From a virus (lineage: Duplodnaviria > Heunggongvirae > Uroviricota > Caudoviricetes), in IMG/VR virus record IMGVR_UViG_2690316068_000002: a stretch of 64,000 bases of DNA; one strand, 5' to 3'. Each line of letters starts with the position of its first letter. The stretch's first letter is position 1. The notes beneath the pieces are model-generated. The model was not told the origin of the DNA. It worked only from the letters and a program-made list of their open reading frames with translations, and did no database searches. The translations under genes and the position numbers were made by a program. Shown one piece after another: positions 18,085-24,905 of the stretch.

Positions 18085-18186
18085 GTATGCTGTCAGCGGT
18101 AATTGATAGTCTGTCAGCGGTTCACCGTATGCTGCCAACTGTTTTTGGTATTCTGTCAGCGGCAAATCAAGTATGCTGTCAGCGGT
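18085..18186. repeat. iteron array upstream of repA (5 copies)
   Basis: GTATGCTGTCAGCGGT-like 16-mers at about 18085, 18107, 18127 (degenerate), 18148, 18171. Confidence 0.8.
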
Positions 18187-18206
18187 TGAATGACAAAGGT
18201 GTCCAC

Positions 18207-19301
18207 ATGTCCACAAAAAATAAAAAAGGTAAAAATAACAAAGAAGTAGAAGATAACATCGACAACTTTGAAGAAGGTTCCCTTGAATTGTACACAGGGG
18301 AACTTGTCCCTAATAGCAACAATACAGTCCAACCAATTGCGTTGATGCGACTGGGGTTGTTCGTCCCCACGCTTAAGGGAACAAAATACAGTAAACGTAA
18401 CAAGCCAAATGAGATCGATGCTTCAAAGGAGCTTGTCCAGCTCGAAGTAGCCCGTTCTGAAGGCTATTCCGATATCAAGATAACCGGCCCTCGCCTGGAC
18501 ATGGATCATGATTTCAAAACGTGGGTGGGCGTTGTGCGTTCGCTGGCAGAATACGGCGAACCTAATGGTCGTGTCGAGTTAAGCATCACGAAATTTGCGA
18601 AGTTTTGTGGCTATCCATCGTCACAGATCCGCAAAACACTCCGCGACCGGCTTACAAACAGTCTTTTGAAGATCATGCGTACAACTCTGTCTTTCCAGAG
18701 AACGTATGAAGAAAAGAACGTCGACGGCTCTAACAAGATCTCGCTTCTGATGGTGCACCTCATCAATAGCGTGGACTACAACGAGCAGAAAGATACGGTG
18801 GTGTTCTATGCAGAACCGAAGCTGGCCGAACTATATCGCTTTGACCATAAGGTTCTTTTGCAGTTAAAGGTTATCAATAAGCTACCACGCAAAGAAACAG
18901 CACAGGCTCTGTACACCTTCATCGAAAGTCTTCCAACCAAGCCTGCGCCGGTATCGCTTGCTCGATTGCGTGCGCGACTCAATTTGAGTAGCAGGAATGT
19001 CAGCTCGCAGAATCAGACTATACGTAACGGCTTAAAAGCTCTCCAAGATTTGGGCTATCTCGAATACAGCGAGATTAAGCGTGGGCGGTCGATCTATATC
19101 CAGATTCACAGCCGCAATCCAAAACTCAAAGTCGCACCGCCAAAACCTGAAGACATCGAACCCAAAAAACCAGATGAGAAAGCTGGGGAAATTGATGCCA
19201 AACAGAACATTATCAACAAGATAACCGAACTTTCGCAGAATTTGACGCCTGAAAATATCAAGATGATTGAGATCCTTTCCAATAGTCTCAAACTGCTTTG
19301 A
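18207..19301 (+). CDS. repA: plasmid-type replication initiator (RepA-like)
   Basis: ORF 18087..19301 trimmed to ATG at 18207 (AAAGG RBS; longer ORF would run through the iterons); assignment rests on flanking iterons, DnaA box and GATC cluster, not on recognised protein motifs. Confidence 0.6.
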   Translation: MSTKNKKGKNNKEVEDNIDNFEEGSLELYTGELVPNSNNTVQPIALMRLGLFVPTLKGTKYSKRNKPNEIDASKELVQLEVARSEGYSDIKITGPRLDMDHDFKTWVGVVRSLAEYGEPNGRVELSITKFAKFCGYPSSQIRKTLRDRLTNSLLKIMRTTLSFQRTYEEKNVDGSNKISLLMVHLINSVDYNEQKDTVVFYAEPKLAELYRFDHKVLLQLKVINKLPRKETAQALYTFIESLPTKPAPVSLARLRARLNLSSRNVSSQNQTIRNGLKALQDLGYLEYSEIKRGRSIYIQIHSRNPKLKVAPPKPEDIEPKKPDEKAGEIDAKQNIINKITELSQNLTPENIKMIEILSNSLKLL

Positions 19302-19418
19302 TATGCTGTCAGCGGTGAAATGTATGCTATCAGCGGCTATTTTTCTGAAAAGTATGCTGTGAACGGTTAAAGATATGCTACCAGCGGTATAGTGAGATAA
19401 ACGTATGCTGTGAGCGGT
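19301..19418. repeat. iteron array downstream of repA, cluster 1 (5 copies)
   Basis: 16-mers (G/A)TATGCT(G/A)(T/C)(C/G)A(G/A)CGG(T/C) at about 19301, 19322, 19342, 19373, 19403. Confidence 0.8.
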
Positions 19419-19577
19419 AAATCATCTATCACCACTCAATGCTCTGGCATACCTCCCCAGTGGTTACTAACCTCGAAGAGTGCATTCCATATAGGTTTGC
19501 GCTCACTAACATTCTATTGCCGTTGCGCTGATTGCTTGTAGTGAAAGGCATTTATTGCCTGCTGCTCCCTGATAGAA

Positions 19578-19832
19578 CGTATGCTGTCAGCGGTGTTTTA
19601 TTGAGGAATTTTTGTTTGGATATGCTATCAGCGGTAATTAATGGTATATGTCAGACCTTCGTATGCTGCCAGCGGTAATTTTGTTCTGGTTATACCCATA
19701 CCGGTACACATTATTCATGCAATGTCTTAAGTATGCTGTCAGCGGTAAAAAATCGAGTAAAGTATGCTGTGAGCGGTGAGATAAACTCTCGATATGCTAT
19801 CAGCGGTAATTGATTGTGTATGCTGTCAGCGG
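19578..19832. repeat. iteron array downstream of repA, cluster 2 (7 copies)
   Basis: Same 16-mer family at about 19578, 19619, 19660, 19730, 19761, 19791, 19817. Confidence 0.8.
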
Positions 19833-19845
19833 TGACGACTATGAA

Positions 19846-19880: not shown

Positions 19881-20093
19881 TTAGTGTATTTTCTTTAACA
19901 GACCCCAAAGTGTTCCGGCTTTTGTAGTCAGTTTTCCTGTTTCTGGATCGTACATACGCCATTCACGCCGCTGGTGGACGATATACCCATCTTCACGTTC
20001 CAGACGCTCAAGAATGCCAGGCTGCTTGAAACCCTTAGCACGCCAGTAGCCGCTTGTTTTCTCGATTTCCAGACCTGCCAGTGTTAATGCCAT
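19881..20093 (-). CDS. hypothetical protein
   Basis: 70 aa ORF. Confidence 0.4.
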   Translation of the reverse strand: MALTLAGLEIEKTSGYWRAKGFKQPGILERLEREDGYIVHQRREWRMYDPETGKLTTKAGTLWGLLKKIH

Positions 20094-20428
20094 TATCCAA
20101 CCTCCTTGCAGTCATCGAAAAGGTAGCTTTGCTGAGAAGCGTGAACGCCATAGAAGCCCTTGTATTTGTTGTATACGAAGTGGTCTTCTCCTACGCCGGT
20201 TAATTTGCCATTACGGTTTGTGAGATATGGGGATGACAATACTCGATCGTCACGCACTACATAGAACTGGTCGCCGCTGTCTACGACCATCGCGCCATAT
20301 GGTGCTTTTATGACGTCGGTAAAAGCGCCATTCTTAATGTCGGCTACAGACATTTCACACTGATAAACAGTGGTGTCGGCCACAACGATCGAAGAAAGGA
20401 ACAACAGAGCGAATGGGATGGCCTTCAT
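20093..20428 (-). CDS. hypothetical secreted protein
   Basis: N-terminal signal peptide MKAIPFALLFLSSIVVA. Confidence 0.5.
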   Translation of the reverse strand: MKAIPFALLFLSSIVVADTTVYQCEMSVADIKNGAFTDVIKAPYGAMVVDSGDQFYVVRDDRVLSSPYLTNRNGKLTGVGEDHFVYNKYKGFYGVHASQQSYLFDDCKEVG

Positions 20429-20604
20429 GCTGCCACCTCTTTGATTACATCAAATGCTGAATTAAATACGAGCACGATAGCCAAAGCGTTTATGACTACT
20501 TCGTTCACCGGGGAAAAGACTTTACGAATGACACCAGTGAAAATGCAGTCGATGACAAAAGCTATTGACACGATGAGTAACAAGTATTCAATAAAAATCT
20601 TCAT
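20425..20604 (-). CDS. small hydrophobic membrane protein (59 aa)
   Basis: Below the 60-aa ORF cutoff, found by manual translation: MKIFIEYLLLIVSIAFVIDCIFTGVIRKVF...; ATGA overlap with downstream gene. Confidence 0.35.
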   Translation of the reverse strand: MKIFIEYLLLIVSIAFVIDCIFTGVIRKVFSPVNEVVINALAIVLVFNSAFDVIKEVAA

Positions 20605-20643
20605 GATAGGTAGATACTAACTTATATAAATTTTACTGTAAAC

Positions 20644-20919
20644 TCACTCAAAAGTGCTGATGCTTAAAATACGCTCAAGATGTGCGGCATCTTCATCACT
20701 GATTTGTTGAGTCTCTTCTACGTACCAACAGTTGCCGTTATGCCAACAAACACCATCATCATCAACCATCACTGAATCAGCGTCATGACCTGTATATTCA
20801 ACGAGAATGCGCTGGATCAGCGCGTCAGTTTCTTCGTCGTTAAGGCCATCGGCTTTGACCATAAAAAGCGGAAACACGTCATAGACAGTGCTGGTAACGA
20901 TTCGAACTAAAACTCTCAT
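20644..20919 (-). CDS. hypothetical acidic protein
   Basis: 91 aa ORF; conserved TIR AAAGGAAAAACAC before ATG. Confidence 0.5.
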   Translation of the reverse strand: MRVLVRIVTSTVYDVFPLFMVKADGLNDEETDALIQRILVEYTGHDADSVMVDDDGVCWHNGNCWYVEETQQISDEDAAHLERILSISTFE

Positions 20920-20974
20920 GTGTTTTTCCTTTTGTGGTTAGTGTTTACTTATTTTGTTAGTTATGAATAGGCGA

Positions 20975-21400
20975 TCAATCTTCTTGTTTAGGGAAAAACT
21001 GTTCAATAACTCTGTCAACGGCTGTGTCTATATGGAGTAGATGCCACACAACCATATCTTTGCTTCCCATGCCTTGTGTGAATATCACGTCATACTTACG
21101 CCATGCGCAGTGGAACCAATATGCTGAGTCATCAATTGGTAAATCCTCTCCCGCCTCTTTGAAGTATTTCAGCAGCATTGCCTGCTCTGCCGTTGGCGTT
21201 GGACCTATTTCCTGAGCGTACATACGGATGAATCGCTGCCAGTCTGTCTCGTCGGGGGTTGGATCTGGTGGGGTCATTTCTGCGATAGCGTTTCGTAGCT
21301 GATGCGCCCAATCAGGTTCAGGAAAGCCTTTTGCTACTTCATCATCAATAACATCCAGAGCCACGTTTGCGGCATCGTAGAGTTTCTTAATAGCTGTCAT
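20975..21400 (-). CDS. hypothetical protein
   Basis: 141 aa ORF. Confidence 0.5.
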   Translation of the reverse strand: MTAIKKLYDAANVALDVIDDEVAKGFPEPDWAHQLRNAIAEMTPPDPTPDETDWQRFIRMYAQEIGPTPTAEQAMLLKYFKEAGEDLPIDDSAYWFHCAWRKYDVIFTQGMGSKDMVVWHLLHIDTAVDRVIEQFFPKQED

Positions 21401-21450
21401 GTTTTCTTATCCTTTTAAACAAATTGTTTTCTTAATAAGATAATTGCGAT

Positions 21451-21476
21451 AAAAAAGGCGTCCAACTGGACGCCTG
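21451..21476 (-). terminator. rho-independent terminator (AGGCGTCC...GGACGCCT family)
   Basis: Stem AGGCGTCC/GGACGCCT followed on minus strand by TTTTTTAT. Confidence 0.6.
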
Positions 21477-21491
21477 AACTTTTTAGGGGAG

Positions 21492-22322
21492 TTATTTCAC
21501 TGTAATGAAAGGAGTGTTAGCCCCTTGAGTCATGTACTGCGGTAACTGGCCATTCCATTTATTGATGGCTTCCAGTTCCATAACGTTCGGGTTTTGACGC
21601 AGAGCTTCACCGCGCAGACGAATGGCGTCTGCTTCTGCTTGCGCACGAGCACGGATAGCATCAGCTTCACCATTAGCCTGTTCACGTAGCATATTCGCCT
21701 CAGCTTTACGCTGTTCAACTTCCTGCTGACGTTGCAGAGTACGCTGGTTAGCCGTTACTTTGGCGTTAATAGATTCAATGACGGTTTTTGGGTAATCAGG
21801 CTTTCCAACCCATGACAGGCTCAGTACCTCAATACCAACCGGAGACATCTCTTTCTGAATATCTTTCAGTGCGTTGTCCAGCAATTGTGCCTTACCACCG
21901 TCGATAAATGAGTCAGTGGTCATACGGCTGGCCAAACGGTTTAGAGAGTCGGCAATTTTCTGACGCAGATCTGATTCGGTGATATCGTCTACGCCTTTGC
22001 GATAGGTCTGGAACACCGTCGTTACCTTGTCACGATTAACCAGATACGCAACGCCAATTTTGTGACCAATAGCAGTACCGTCACTCATCTGGAATGTGAA
22101 CGGCTCGTCGTAGGTCTTCATTTGTTTGAAGGTCGGGAATACGTAAAGTTCGGTGTTAAGACCTGTCCATTGGCGACCAACGCCAACCACTTCACCAATC
22201 CCTTTGTCTTCACCTAATTTGTTTACTTTGATGCCAACGTATCCAGGCTCCACGCGATCACAGCCAGTAAGACCCATTGTGCAAATAGCCGCCAGAGCAA
22301 CTGCAAGTAAACCTTTCTTCAT
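21492..22322 (-). CDS. SPFH (band-7/stomatin/prohibitin-like) domain lipoprotein
   Basis: Lipobox LTGC after signal peptide; SPFH-like core with C-terminal coiled-coil Ala/Glu/Arg-rich tail. Confidence 0.55.
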   Translation of the reverse strand: MKKGLLAVALAAICTMGLTGCDRVEPGYVGIKVNKLGEDKGIGEVVGVGRQWTGLNTELYVFPTFKQMKTYDEPFTFQMSDGTAIGHKIGVAYLVNRDKVTTVFQTYRKGVDDITESDLRQKIADSLNRLASRMTTDSFIDGGKAQLLDNALKDIQKEMSPVGIEVLSLSWVGKPDYPKTVIESINAKVTANQRTLQRQQEVEQRKAEANMLREQANGEADAIRARAQAEADAIRLRGEALRQNPNVMELEAINKWNGQLPQYMTQGANTPFITVK

Positions 22323-22325
22323 TAC

Positions 22326-22526
22326 TTATTTCCCCTTTGCTTTGATTAATGAGTTGATAAACTTACGACCAGCAATAAGACCGATTACAGGAGCACCAAA
22401 ACCAACGATAACTCCAAACATGACGGCTAAATCACTCTTGGTAGAAATCAGCGACGGAACCAGTAAACCGTAGATGAGAGCCACTGAAAGGCCTGTGGCT
22501 ACTGCCAATAGATAGATTTTGATCAT
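22326..22526 (-). CDS. small two-TM membrane protein
   Basis: 66 aa, two hydrophobic helices; immediately upstream of SPFH gene. Confidence 0.45.
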   Translation of the reverse strand: MIKIYLLAVATGLSVALIYGLLVPSLISTKSDLAVMFGVIVGFGAPVIGLIAGRKFINSLIKAKGK

Positions 22527-22590
22527 GTGTTTTCCTATGTGGTTGTTATGCGAAAATAATAAGTAAGTGCTTATATATTTTCAAGAGATA

Positions 22591-22615
22591 AAAAAGGCGT
22601 CCTGTGGACGCCTTG
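22591..22615 (-). terminator. rho-independent terminator (AGGCGTCC...GGACGCCT family)
   Basis: AAGGCGTCC-acag-GACGCCTTTTTTA on minus strand after recA-like gene. Confidence 0.6.
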
Positions 22616-22618
22616 TGT

Positions 22619-23692
22619 TTACTCTTCTACTGACTCGGTGGGGTTGTCTTTTGCTCTTCGGTCGTCGATTGCCTGCAAAGCCGCAATGATTTCAGCCAGT
22701 GGCTTCTCCCGATACATCTCGACGATCTGCGATTTGGTGTATTTCTTGTCACCAATTTCAACTCGCCCGCTGGCGTTCTTTGGCAGGTATCCTTCTTCCA
22801 GCATGTACTCGACGAGCGATTCGATAACGTCGAGGCCACGAGTAGGATCGAAGTAGAATTTCCAGGTGCATTTGCCATACGGTGGTGCAACTTTGTTTTT
22901 GATGCATTCTGCGCCTACGTCCTGGCCGATCTTCTCTTTACCATCCTTCATCACCGATGCACCAAGACGGATACGTACAGAAGCGTAGAACTTCGGTGAA
23001 TCTCCACCTGGCGACGTAGTAGGGTCGCCAAACATTACACCGATTTTTGTGCGAACCTGATTCAAGAAGATGATGCAGGCGTTGTATTTGCGTGCCCACA
23101 AAGCCAGAGTAGGGAAGTTCGCACTCGTCGCACGAGCCAGTGCCGTATTGTCGTTCATGTTTAGCTGATCTTTGTCTTTGGCAGTGCCTTCAGCCATCTT
23201 TTCGAACTTCTCGGCTTTGGAGTTCGGAACCATAGACGCAAGAGAGTCAGCCACGATACAGATTGGTGCTGATTCGGGGATAAGCTCTTCATCACGAACC
23301 AATTTAAGTATTGTGCCGATCAACTCTACAGAGTCTTCGAAGGTATCTGGCTGCTTGTATACCCACTGACCGTCATCCTCATCTGCGTTCAGGCCATTGG
23401 CGACAGCCAGGCCAACGTCAAAACTGTTTTCATGATCGAGGAATACCGCCAGACCATCTTGTTTTTGAGCGGAGATCATCGCTGCTGTTGCAAGGAACGT
23501 TTTCCCTGCACTTGGAGGACCGAATACTTCGACGATACGACCACATGGGAAGCCGCCATCGTAACGACCAGAAATAGCTTTGTTTAACGGTGGAAAGCCT
23601 GTATCAATCCAATGAGTTACTTTCTGAATTTCGTCGTTGCTACCGATTTTCTTTTTCAGAGCAAGTGCCAGTGCGGATTTTCCTTTTGCCAT
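22619..23692 (-). CDS. recA: RecA-like recombinase
   Basis: Walker A GPPSAGKT; block LIFLNQVRTKIGVMFGDPTTSPGGDSPKFYASVRIRLG nearly collinear with E. coli RecA L2-loop region. Confidence 0.85.
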   Translation of the reverse strand: MAKGKSALALALKKKIGSNDEIQKVTHWIDTGFPPLNKAISGRYDGGFPCGRIVEVFGPPSAGKTFLATAAMISAQKQDGLAVFLDHENSFDVGLAVANGLNADEDDGQWVYKQPDTFEDSVELIGTILKLVRDEELIPESAPICIVADSLASMVPNSKAEKFEKMAEGTAKDKDQLNMNDNTALARATSANFPTLALWARKYNACIIFLNQVRTKIGVMFGDPTTSPGGDSPKFYASVRIRLGASVMKDGKEKIGQDVGAECIKNKVAPPYGKCTWKFYFDPTRGLDVIESLVEYMLEEGYLPKNASGRVEIGDKKYTKSQIVEMYREKPLAEIIAALQAIDDRRAKDNPTESVEE

Positions 23693-23694
23693 GA

Positions 23695-23967
23695 TCAGGC
23701 TCCTTTTGTTTCGTTGATTCGTTTTAAAGCGGCGGATTCATCGAATACAATCGCATCGTGGTTAAGGAGTCTGGATACACGAGCGAGGATTTTTACGACC
23801 TGCTCGCTGACTAATCCAAACTCGCGATCTGTCGCTTTCATTCCGGCAGCGCCTAGAATTGACGGCAGTGCGATGACAGCGTACTCACCGTGATAAAAGA
23901 CAATCTCTTTTGCCAGTTGGGCAGGGGTGGTTGTAGCGCCATTGATAATCGATTTAAGCATTAGCAA
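23695..23967 (-). CDS. hypothetical protein
   Basis: 90 aa ORF. Confidence 0.4.
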   Translation of the reverse strand: MLMLKSIINGATTTPAQLAKEIVFYHGEYAVIALPSILGAAGMKATDREFGLVSEQVVKILARVSRLLNHDAIVFDESAALKRINETKGA

Positions 23968-24905
23968 TACCTTTCGAATGGAAGAACAAACACTTCAAGG
24001 TCTTCAAGGAACGAACGGAAATTCAGCTCGTAGCACAGTTGCTCGAATGCTTTCACGTCACGATTGCCTTTGATTGTTTCGATTTCGGTAGGCGGAAACT
24101 TCGTCTCAATCAGGTTCATTAGCGTGATGTTTCTCTTGAACGCTTCGAGCATTCGACAGCCTGTTTTCTCGTTGAAGGCATTCTTCGCTAGTTTGTTGAA
24201 GGCGGTCTTATGACGCCCTTTATTAACCACGATTGAGCCGTCGTTGATGCCGCGTACCATCGTTGCGACACTTCCCCATTCATGCAGCAGCTCTTTCGCA
24301 CCGCCAGCACCAATGCCACCAACACCGCTAATGTTGTCCGAGTTATCGCCTTGTAATGCTTTTGCTTCCAAAAATGCGCGAGGCGTGGCGAATCCTGTCA
24401 GCTCCGCAAATTGCTCAAAATTAACCTGCTTGTTTTTGGCGTCTTCACGCAGGCTTACCCAGCTTACGTTTTCACGAACTAACTGAAGCCAGTCGCTATC
24501 GCCTGTTAACAGATAGATGTGTTCAACGGTTGGCTGCGGTGCCATGCGGGATACCAGCAGCCCGGCCAGATCATCCGCTTCTGCATCTTTTGCAATGAGT
24601 TGGGTAACTCCAAGCGCGGTCATCATTTTGAGGATGTATGGCTTCTGGATAGCAAAGCCTTCCTTCATCTTTTTCATATCAGGATCGTCGTCGCGATTTG
24701 CTTTGTAGTCCGGGTAAAAGTCGCGACGCTTGTCACTAAATCCATCCCAAAGAATCATAGGTCGGGCATGGAGGATGGAGGCATAACGACGGACGTTCTT
24801 AACAAAGCCGAAAGCAGCCTGTACTTCCATTTCGCCGTTGTGCAATTTGTCAGATTGTTGATGGTAATAACCCAGGCTATTGCCATCTACGAAGAGATAA
24901 TTCAC
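23961..24905 (-). CDS. flap endonuclease / 5'-3' exonuclease (FEN, T5 D15-like)
   Basis: VDGNSLGYY N-terminal motif and GVGGIGAGGAKEL helix-hairpin-helix motif; ORF begins with GTG at 24956, but GTG at 24905 with GGAAGGAA RBS leaves the upstream terminator outside the CDS. Confidence 0.75.
   Translation of the reverse strand: MNYLFVDGNSLGYYHQQSDKLHNGEMEVQAAFGFVKNVRRYASILHARPMILWDGFSDKRRDFYPDYKANRDDDPDMKKMKEGFAIQKPYILKMMTALGVTQLIAKDAEADDLAGLLVSRMAPQPTVEHIYLLTGDSDWLQLVRENVSWVSLREDAKNKQVNFEQFAELTGFATPRAFLEAKALQGDNSDNISGVGGIGAGGAKELLHEWGSVATMVRGINDGSIVVNKGRHKTAFNKLAKNAFNEKTGCRMLEAFKRNITLMNLIETKFPPTEIETIKGNRDVKAFEQLCYELNFRSFLEDLEVFVLPFERYC

Follow-up and report, generated by a model that had tools for sequence, protein, structure and literature searches.

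A predicted SPFH lipoprotein and a membrane hairpin form a conserved functional pair in phages

The viral record IMGVR_UViG_2690316068_000002 was analysed here over a 64-kb stretch, called the window, which is an SSU5-like phage-plasmid of E. coli. Two minus-strand genes of the window encode a 66-residue membrane hairpin (22326-22526) and, just behind it, a 276-residue predicted lipoprotein of the SPFH superfamily (21492-22322). The two genes form a functional pair, as their conserved adjacency, overlapping starts and natural fusions indicate. We give an even chance to the reading that the phage uses the pair to build an SPFH cage on the inner membrane, on its periplasmic side, with the hairpins as its membrane part and with a role in scaffolding for membrane integrity or membrane-protein control.

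In a nucleotide comparison of region 20000-24000, identity is 98.8% with Escherichia phage CMS-2020a, 96.6% with Cyrano (the pLF82 phage-plasmid) and 78% with Salmonella phage SSU5. A first-pass annotation had taken the DNA for that of a phage, and the element is indeed a phage-plasmid. The window's pair is a typical and well-conserved copy of its family and no one-off, and both open reading frames (ORFs) are genuine genes rather than chance ones.

The SPFH lipoprotein

The 276-residue protein matches the Band_7/SPFH family of Pfam (PF01145) over model positions 2-176 of 176 with E=2.6e-30 and 106.2 bits against a cut-off of 23.6, which places it in the superfamily. It also belongs to PHROG 200, 'lipoprotein' (E=3e-108). 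The first-pass annotation had proposed an SPFH protein in this position, and the fold is detected both by Pfam and by Foldseek, the latter with HflC and HflK as the top folds.

The N-terminus reads MKKGLLAVALAAICTMGLTG-C21-DR, with a basic n-region of KK, a hydrophobic core and then the lipobox L-T-G-C21. It agrees with the pattern [LVI][ASTVI][GAS]C closing an N-terminal signal peptide and is a textbook signal for signal peptidase II, which predicts a lipoprotein. By inspection, the signal peptide and lipobox take up residues 1-21, with Cys21 encoded at 22260-22262 on the minus strand and Asp22 at the +2 position. The lipobox had been pointed out before, and its Cys is invariant, together with Y107, R108, G143, W256, G258 and P261, in an alignment of SPFH proteins from 12 very different phages. 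These invariant residues are kept across phages of enterobacteria, Leptospira, Bacteroidota and Caulobacter.

The family was surveyed over 293 loci from annotated phages and four viral-contig scans, and clustering of their SPFH proteins at 70% identity gave 56 clusters. The lipobox is found in 54 of these divergent clusters and in 117 of 146 representatives. In all clusters the SPFH domain begins 2-3 residues past the Cys, with the consensus C-x-[KR]-V-[PE]-[AP]-G, so the folded domain must lie immediately against the lipid-bearing leaflet. Of the 102 lipobox-bearing enterobacterial homologues, about 94 have Asp at +2, as does the window's protein (C-D-R). In E. coli, Asp at +2 keeps a lipoprotein in the inner membrane by Lol avoidance, and the phage protein may likewise stay there.

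The AlphaFold2 model of the SPFH protein has a mean predicted local distance difference test (pLDDT) score of 75.8. The SPFH domain extends from about residue 23 to residue 176 or 209 and is followed by coiled-coil helices over residues 179-255, modelled as 179-217, 220-243 and 245-255. The C-terminus carries a conserved motif, K-W256-N-G258-x-L-P261 in the alignment, and its W256-x-G258-x-x-P261 core falls in the low-confidence end of the modelled monomer. The low pLDDT of residues 245-276 is compatible with a segment that folds only in an oligomer, although it is no proof of that. Residues 208-266 also match the Flotillin repeat weakly (E=8e-4, under the Pfam cut-off).

Searched against the PDB with Foldseek, the model finds HflC (E=3e-14; HflC/HflK entry 7vhq) and HflK (E=7.5e-14) best, followed by prohibitin (8rrh) and erlin (9vvj). 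Stomatin, flotillin and vault come further down, and the SPFH-NfeD complex QmcA-YbbJ appears at rank 37. Altogether 65 PDB chains match at E<=0.001, and 50 of the 50 among the matches listed are SPFH-fold proteins, with vault included. By sequence, HflK (7vhq) is the sole match in the PDB (E=0.007). The best NCBIfam matches, HflC and HflK, score 30.2 bits (E=2e-7) and 18.7 bits, below their equivalog cut-offs of 134.4 and 159.4, respectively. The protein is a distant SPFH family of its own, outside the HflK, HflC and QmcA families. Its model most resembles HflK/C, prohibitin and erlin, which build cages on the side of the membrane turned from the cytoplasm.

The soluble part of HflK/C faces the periplasm from the inner membrane. 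The phage protein shares with HflK and HflC (PDB 7vhq, 7wi3, 9cz2) the SPFH domain, the long coiled-coil helices after it and a short C-terminal segment, and its soluble part is likewise predicted to be in the periplasm from the signal peptide with lipobox and from the fusion topology described below. The phage system differs in being only 16-20% identical and under the TIGR01932/TIGR01933 cut-offs, in having one SPFH gene instead of two paralogues and in a predicted N-terminal lipid anchor instead of a transmembrane helix. It also adds a dedicated hairpin partner with two transmembrane helices and is carried by phages, and any association with FtsH is only hypothetical.

Prohibitin and erlin are cage-forming SPFH proteins on the non-cytoplasmic membrane face and are tied to membrane-protein quality control. 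They fit the model almost as closely as HflK/C does (8rrh, 9o9z, 9vvj; E about 4e-13). Unlike the phage pair, they are eukaryotic hetero-oligomers with transmembrane anchors and have no hairpin partner.

The hairpin partner and the gene pair

The 66-residue protein matches PHROG 1130, 'membrane protein' (E=2e-25), and no Pfam family. PHROG 1130 takes in 31 of 40 partner homologues and has the category 'moron, auxiliary metabolic gene and host takeover', and the database sources all label the partner 'hypothetical protein'. Both phage proteins are thus clear members of PHROG families that carry no assigned function. PHROG 200 and PHROG 1130 are bare clusters, and the pairing, turn motif, fusions and function are unrecorded there.

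A small protein with two transmembrane segments had been noticed ahead of the SPFH gene, and it is confirmed by two hydrophobic segments and by the AlphaFold2 model (pLDDT 86). The model consists of helix 2-28, turn 29-31 and helix 32-65, a hairpin and nothing more. Over the 40 homologues, the mean number of Lys plus Arg per protein is 1.3 for the N-tail, 0.3 for the turn or loop and 3.5 for the C-tail, and by the positive-inside rule this distribution puts both ends in the cytoplasm and the turn in the periplasm. In the window, the turn reads Y-G-x-x-V-P24-x-L-I-S28-x-K-S-D and a basic tail ends the protein. The family motif that closes helix 1 is G-x-V-x-P-x-L-I-S-A-x-[SD]-[DT], with the P in 38 and the S in 35 of the 40 homologues. 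Over the partner family alignments, P24 is invariant or nearly so and S28 is kept in at least 88%.

The pair had been likened to bacterial SPFH/NfeD operons, which are represented by QmcA-YbbJ (8z5g), YqiK-YqiJ and the Pyrococcus PH1511 stomatin with the PH1510 NfeD protease. As a loose analogy this stands: an SPFH gene is co-transcribed with the gene of a small membrane protein in one operon, presumably for a complex, and an adjacent co-transcribed membrane partner is what we find (a 3-nucleotide gap in the window, adjacency in 47 of the 56 clusters and co-induction in Cyrano). The closer kinship does not. None of the 40 partner homologues matches the NfeD domain (PF01957) at E<=10, and the partner family profile finds no NfeD or YbbJ chain in the PDB at E<=10. 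Moreover, 66 residues leave no room for an OB-fold, and the partner has no protease domain either.

With these null matches and the bare two-helix model, NfeD membership of the partner was rejected, and the pair is not an SPFH/NfeD operon because the defining NfeD domain is missing. QmcA faces the cytoplasm, unlike the phage SPFH protein, which is predicted to be lipid-anchored and periplasmic, and to which QmcA is structurally similar only at rank 37. Two other weak matches arose among the 40 partners, to Phage_holin_3_6 in two (E=0.049) and to phrog_1039, 'immunity to superinfection', in one (E=6e-4).

To find partners over the whole family, a hidden Markov model was built from ten of them, iterated three times and run on all ORFs of the loci. 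A homologous small ORF lies directly upstream of the SPFH gene on the same strand in 47 of the 56 clusters, mostly overlapping the SPFH start by 4-20 nucleotides. Most of the other nine clusters keep an adjoining small ORF with two transmembrane segments; the motif is present in three of these ORFs, and two clusters have theirs downstream of the SPFH gene. The arrangement with the hairpin upstream is seen in bacterial genomes as well.

The two genes are adjacent in SSU5, Cyrano and the unrelated P2-like phage P88. In P88 they overlap by ATGA, and the SPFH protein is 77% identical to the window's while the partner is only 25% identical (E=2e-5). In the window, 3 nucleotides separate the stop of the partner gene from the SPFH gene, whose AAGGGG Shine-Dalgarno-like motif sits within the 3′ end of the partner gene.

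Natural fusions of the partner to the SPFH protein occur in P0021 and in 17 of 150 representatives of 50%-identity clusters (about 11%). Their order is always the first transmembrane helix, the turn, the second transmembrane helix, a basic linker, a signal peptide with lipobox and the SPFH domain. Such fusions are Rosetta-stone evidence for a joint function of the two proteins, and their domain order independently fixes the topology of hairpin and SPFH domain.

An internal lipobox is retained in the fusion proteins P0021, P0183, P0193, P0194, P0202, P0204, P0210, P0212 and others. If signal peptidase II still cuts them, a single precursor would give both proteins. In the representative P0188, a partner-like domain sits at the C-terminus instead.

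The SPFH protein is present in 413 of 50,697 phage records by tblastn, in both lytic and temperate phages. The temperate carriers include phiP27, Stx2a phages, P88 and SSU5-like elements. Among the strictly lytic ones are the N4-like phages, the rV5-like PVP-SE1, the LUZ24-like TL, the FelixO1-like phiEa104, phiCbK, the T7-like ProddE, Lak megaphages and crAss-like phages. In size the family is moderate: a search of 1.84 billion representatives yields 195 clusters at 50% identity with E<=1e-30. As to complete E. coli genomes, 291 of 5,426 (about 5%) have the pair, in 206 places on plasmids and 101 on chromosomes.

A chromosomal form occurs in more than 25 species of Dyella and related Rhodanobacteraceae, where the hairpin-SPFH pair is a syntenic locus (for example, L332 848-8712). 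It is flanked by a divergent BlaI-like repressor with a BlaR1/peptidase-M56 sensor and by the ribonucleotide reductase genes nrdAB. This copy looks vertically inherited and cellular, and it is possibly under envelope-stress control.

Gene context and expression

In the window the pair appears to make up an autonomous cassette on the minus strand. An intrinsic terminator at 22594-22614 follows the recA/uvsX-like gene upstream (AAGGCGTCC-aca-GGACGCCTT and then a T-run), and another at 21456-21475 follows the SPFH gene (AGGCGTCC-agtt-GGACGCCT and then TTTTTT), both from a terminator scan. A consensus scan gives a putative sigma-70-like promoter at 22556-22584 (TTGAAA-17 nt-TATTAT; 10 of 12 matches), and a Shine-Dalgarno AGGA is read at 22533-22536, 6 nucleotides before the ATG of the partner gene.

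The two bracketing terminators are near-identical and have a common 8-bp stem, AGGCGTCC/GGACGCCT. The hairpin AGGCGTCC-N3-5-GGACGCCT has two copies in the 64-kb window, both at the cassette ends, while none is expected by chance. Cyrano and SSU5 keep both terminators, the promoter and the ribosome-binding site. All three elements have the same -35 hexamer and a TATYAT -10 element, in a region of only about 80% overall identity; AGGA is kept in Cyrano, and SSU5 has AAGGAAAC.

Among the loci compared, the terminator hairpin brackets the cassette solely in SSU5-like relatives. The bracketing terminators might be a boundary duplicated in the acquisition of the cassette, or sites of module exchange. 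Unlike this bracketed cassette, the pair lies within early operons in P88 and phiP27. In lytic phages its neighbours are early or replication genes, and the annotations of TL and PVP-SE1 place host-type promoters upstream of it.

An effect on lysis timing had also been suggested, and gene context lends it no support. Over 13 annotated phage loci, the pair is among early or replication/recombination genes and never beside an annotated endolysin/lysin, holin or spanin. A holin or lysis-cassette role was rejected on this context. A spanin-like role was ruled out by Asp at +2, by the absence of a periplasmic linker or tether and by a partner with no periplasmic domain. The broader suggestion, that the pair modulates the host envelope, is plausible.

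Expression of the orthologues can be read from published RNA-seq of strain LF82 carrying Cyrano, given as log2(fpkm+5), where fpkm is fragments per kilobase per million, in two replicates each (PMC9928086, S1 Table). The partner gene, CYRAN_56, stands at 2.32/2.32 in lysogeny broth (LB), 4.98/4.89 and 3.48/3.09 after 1 h and 6 h in Dulbecco's modified Eagle's medium (DMEM), and 3.48/5.06 and 7.61/7.70 after 1 h and 6 h in macrophages. The SPFH gene, CYRAN_57, stands at 4.30/3.02 in LB, 5.01/5.24 and 5.00/4.76 in DMEM, and 5.60/5.32 and 7.25/7.42 in macrophages at the same times. The orthologue of the small ORF is thus transcribed in Cyrano, and with the SPFH fold detected too, neither outcome that the first-pass annotation had named as refuting it came about.

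After 6 h in macrophages the pair is up about 10- to 40-fold and its neighbours are not, the flanking CYRAN_55 (recA) and CYRAN_58 remaining at 2.3 to ~4.2 throughout (PMC9928086). Because both genes rise while the flanking ones stay low, the pair appears to be co-transcribed and independent of its neighbours. A constitutive moron in lysogens is unsupported by the LB transcriptome of LF82/Cyrano (PMC9928086).

Compared with Cyrano, the window shows an abrupt mosaic breakpoint that falls precisely between the two genes (window 21492-22526 against Cyrano L001 4493-5527). The SPFH proteins are 100% identical in amino acids, and the partners are 72.7% identical with 18 non-synonymous and 16 synonymous codon changes. 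Beyond the partner gene, the divergence extends across the promoter region and reaches the 3′ end of recA. The partner allele seems to have been exchanged, recombining independently of the SPFH gene.

Several features around the cassette are of separate interest. The recA/uvsX-like gene upstream (22619-23692, minus) encodes 357 residues in the window. Its orthologue in Cyrano, PhiR41_1 and many E. coli plasmids encodes about 779 residues with an annotated LAGLIDADG homing endonuclease and matches phrog_9666 at positions 487-779 of 779. These relatives carry an intein or homing-endonuclease insertion of ~1.27 kb, which the window does not have.

Directly downstream of the cassette, 20975-21400 (minus) encodes a 141-residue DUF7238 protein (Pfam E=5e-38; phrog_1451), and in SSU5 a NinX-like gene is inserted between this gene and the SPFH gene. 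Further along the same leftward block, 20425-20604 (minus) encodes a 59-residue hydrophobic protein (phrog_2535) and overlaps the next small gene, 20093-20428 (minus), for a 111-residue protein with an N-terminal signal-peptide-like sequence (phrog_2077). The products of the two genes may target the envelope. Their Cyrano orthologues, CYRAN_60 and CYRAN_61, are silent in LB and reach log2 values of about 8.3-8.8 in macrophages at 6 h (PMC9928086).

About 15 iterons with the consensus (G/A)TATGCTGTCAGCGGT lie at 18085-18190 and 19301-19837 and flank repA (ORF 18087-19301), whose true start is probably further downstream. Here the phage-plasmid has its replication origin and copy control, some 1.6 kb away from the SPFH cassette.

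A putative cage and its rivals

The favoured cage model runs as follows. The first gene would give the 66-residue helical hairpin of the inner membrane, with both ends cytoplasmic and the short P-x-L-I-S-x-K-S/D turn periplasmic, and the second gene would be translationally coupled to the first. The SPFH product would be exported by Sec and lipidated on Cys21, and in enterobacteria Asp at +2 would retain it in the outer leaflet of the inner membrane. Its SPFH domain, starting two residues past the lipid, would lie flat on the periplasmic membrane face. Oligomerisation through the C-terminal coiled-coil helices would most likely produce a closed ring or dome, as in HflK/C, prohibitin and erlin.

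The hairpins, equimolar through translational coupling or fused, would dock through their conserved periplasmic turn and supply in trans a transmembrane fence and short basic cytoplasmic tails. HflK/C subunits carry such transmembrane helices and tails in cis. The outcome would be a fenced, phage-built patch of the inner membrane. The most likely pay-off is that the inner membrane is kept intact and the fate of membrane proteins within the patch is controlled, in early lytic infection and, for SSU5-like lysogens, under envelope stress such as inside macrophages.

The cage is proposed because the solved relatives among the Foldseek matches are large closed membrane assemblies with the same domain order. 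The invariant residues across hosts, the carriage by lytic phages and the apparently vertical copy in Dyella suggest that the target is universal, or the structural role autonomous, rather than particular to a phage.

Several points weigh against the cage model. The fold, the lipobox, the hairpin, the conserved pairing with its fusions, the layout of the cassette and transcription in a close relative are established, but we infer the inner-membrane location, the oligomeric cage, the contact between the two proteins and the physiological role. The +2 residue is mostly Ser in the non-enterobacterial homologues, whose hosts have differing sorting rules; in E. coli, Ser at +2 would route a lipoprotein to the outer membrane. 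Between the window and Cyrano, 41 of 201 nucleotides differ in the partner gene and only 3 of 831 in the SPFH gene, which speaks against a close mutual adaptation of particular alleles. In LB-grown lysogens the pair is all but silent, under the 5-fold moron threshold of the authors, and its rise in macrophages was measured in a single data set with two replicates, where some structural genes go up too (PMC9928086).

The literature adds to these points. According to a 2026 paper, why a phage genome should encode an SPFH lipoprotein 'remains unclear'. Searches of PubMed Central (PMC) open access and bioRxiv, with the subscription-only literature outside their reach, found annotations and speculation and no experiment on phage SPFH lipoproteins. 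The CRISPRi-ART and phiKZ interactome papers proved false leads on the function. Further, a Pasteurella prophage SPFH protein was found in outer-membrane vesicles, although its homology to the phage family is unverified.

A narrower alternative is that the periplasmic SPFH cage mimics HflK/C and captures or competes for the periplasmic domain of FtsH, thereby altering the turnover of substrates such as phage regulators (CII-like), phage membrane proteins, LpxC and sigma-32. The matches to HflK and HflC in the PDB and NCBIfam, the top structural rank of the two and their common orientation to the periplasm all speak for it. So does the conservation of FtsH across bacteria, which fits the very wide host range of the family, and a published annotation of Burkholderia phage CSP3 speculates along similar lines.

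However, 30 against 134 bits and 19 against 159 bits are far under the family cut-offs, and an identity of 16-20% is too low for tracing the FtsH-contact residues. The phage has a single SPFH gene and no K/C pair, a lipid anchor replaces the transmembrane helix, and prohibitin and erlin match almost equally well. Most carriers are also strictly lytic, with no lysogeny decision to tune. We consider the mimicry of HflK/C unlikely.

The early-gene position in lytic phages with host-type promoters, and the apparently autonomous cassette in a temperate element, would also suit superinfection exclusion. The pair, made early or in stressed lysogens, would alter the periplasmic face of the inner membrane and block the DNA of later phages, as with Imm and the periplasmic Sp of T4. 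Those too are early phage genes for a small inner-membrane protein with two transmembrane helices and a periplasmic protein, so the pair resembles known exclusion pairs. The moron and host-takeover category of PHROG 1130 and the single weak match to phrog_1039 point the same way.

Against this, the partner profile has no detectable homology with T4 Imm (hhalign probability 8%), Sp is not an SPFH protein, and sp lies ~6 kb from imm and not adjacent to it. A local likeness of LPWFIA...SKST to LPxLIS.KS was rejected as evidence at that same hhalign probability. Neither protein of the pair matches any PADLOC-DB 2.0 defence model at E<=1. Exclusion proteins are usually phage-type-specific and diverse, whereas this family keeps invariant residues across distant phages; the locus in Dyella is chromosomal and apparently inherited vertically, and the pair is silent in LB-grown Cyrano lysogens. 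Superinfection exclusion seems quite improbable to us.

In lysogenic conversion, the lipoprotein would chiefly benefit the bacterial host through serum resistance, adhesion or vesicle cargo, and not the phage cycle. A precedent is PM0222, the Pasteurella prophage SPFH protein, which is expressed in the lysogen and found in the outer-membrane vesicles, and whose deletion alters capsule, adhesion, serum sensitivity and virulence. The induction of the Cyrano orthologues within macrophages and the presence of the pair in 291 of the 5,426 complete E. coli genomes also agree with it. Yet PM0222 is not a verified homologue, host conversion makes no sense for the strictly lytic majority of carriers, and the pair does not exceed the expression background in LB-grown LF82. 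We regard conversion as a poor prospect.

The least probable is a classical SPFH/NfeD operon or a lysis-timing device, with the partner as a minimal NfeD or as a holin or antiholin whose triggering the SPFH protein gates: the gene order does resemble yqiJ-yqiK-type operons, and the size, two helices, N-in/C-in topology and charged C-tail of the partner are typical of class II holins, but NfeD membership is largely refuted by the null searches at E<=10, only 2 of the 40 partners weakly match a holin family and the class II holin assignment fails, and none of the 13 annotated loci has an adjoining endolysin, holin or spanin gene.

Beyond the cage model itself, we tentatively raise the possibility of a distinct, phage-disseminated class of SPFH proteins. 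It would be a homo-oligomeric, lipid-anchored periplasmic nanocage that acquires its transmembrane 'fence' in trans via the P-x-L-I-S turn and, in hundreds of unrelated phages, seizes some universal client in the inner membrane, such as FtsH or the route by which the DNA of rival phages enters. Chromosomal copies such as that of Dyella would then be domesticated for envelope-stress defence.

No description of the conserved hairpin partner, its turn motif or the fusions was found in PMC open access or bioRxiv, while an SPFH scaffold with a small membrane partner is as such a known kind of system. The SPFH cages of HflK/C, flotillin, prohibitin, erlin and stomatin have been solved only recently (PDB entries of 2022-2026), and their contents and purpose are debated. 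The phage family is a minimal and probably homo-oligomeric version of them, reduced to a lipid anchor and a separable 66-residue membrane partner. Since it is small, dispensable-looking and carried by easily handled lytic and temperate phages, two questions become directly testable in it: what a virus gains from a membrane microdomain of its own, and how an SPFH cage recruits transmembrane helices.

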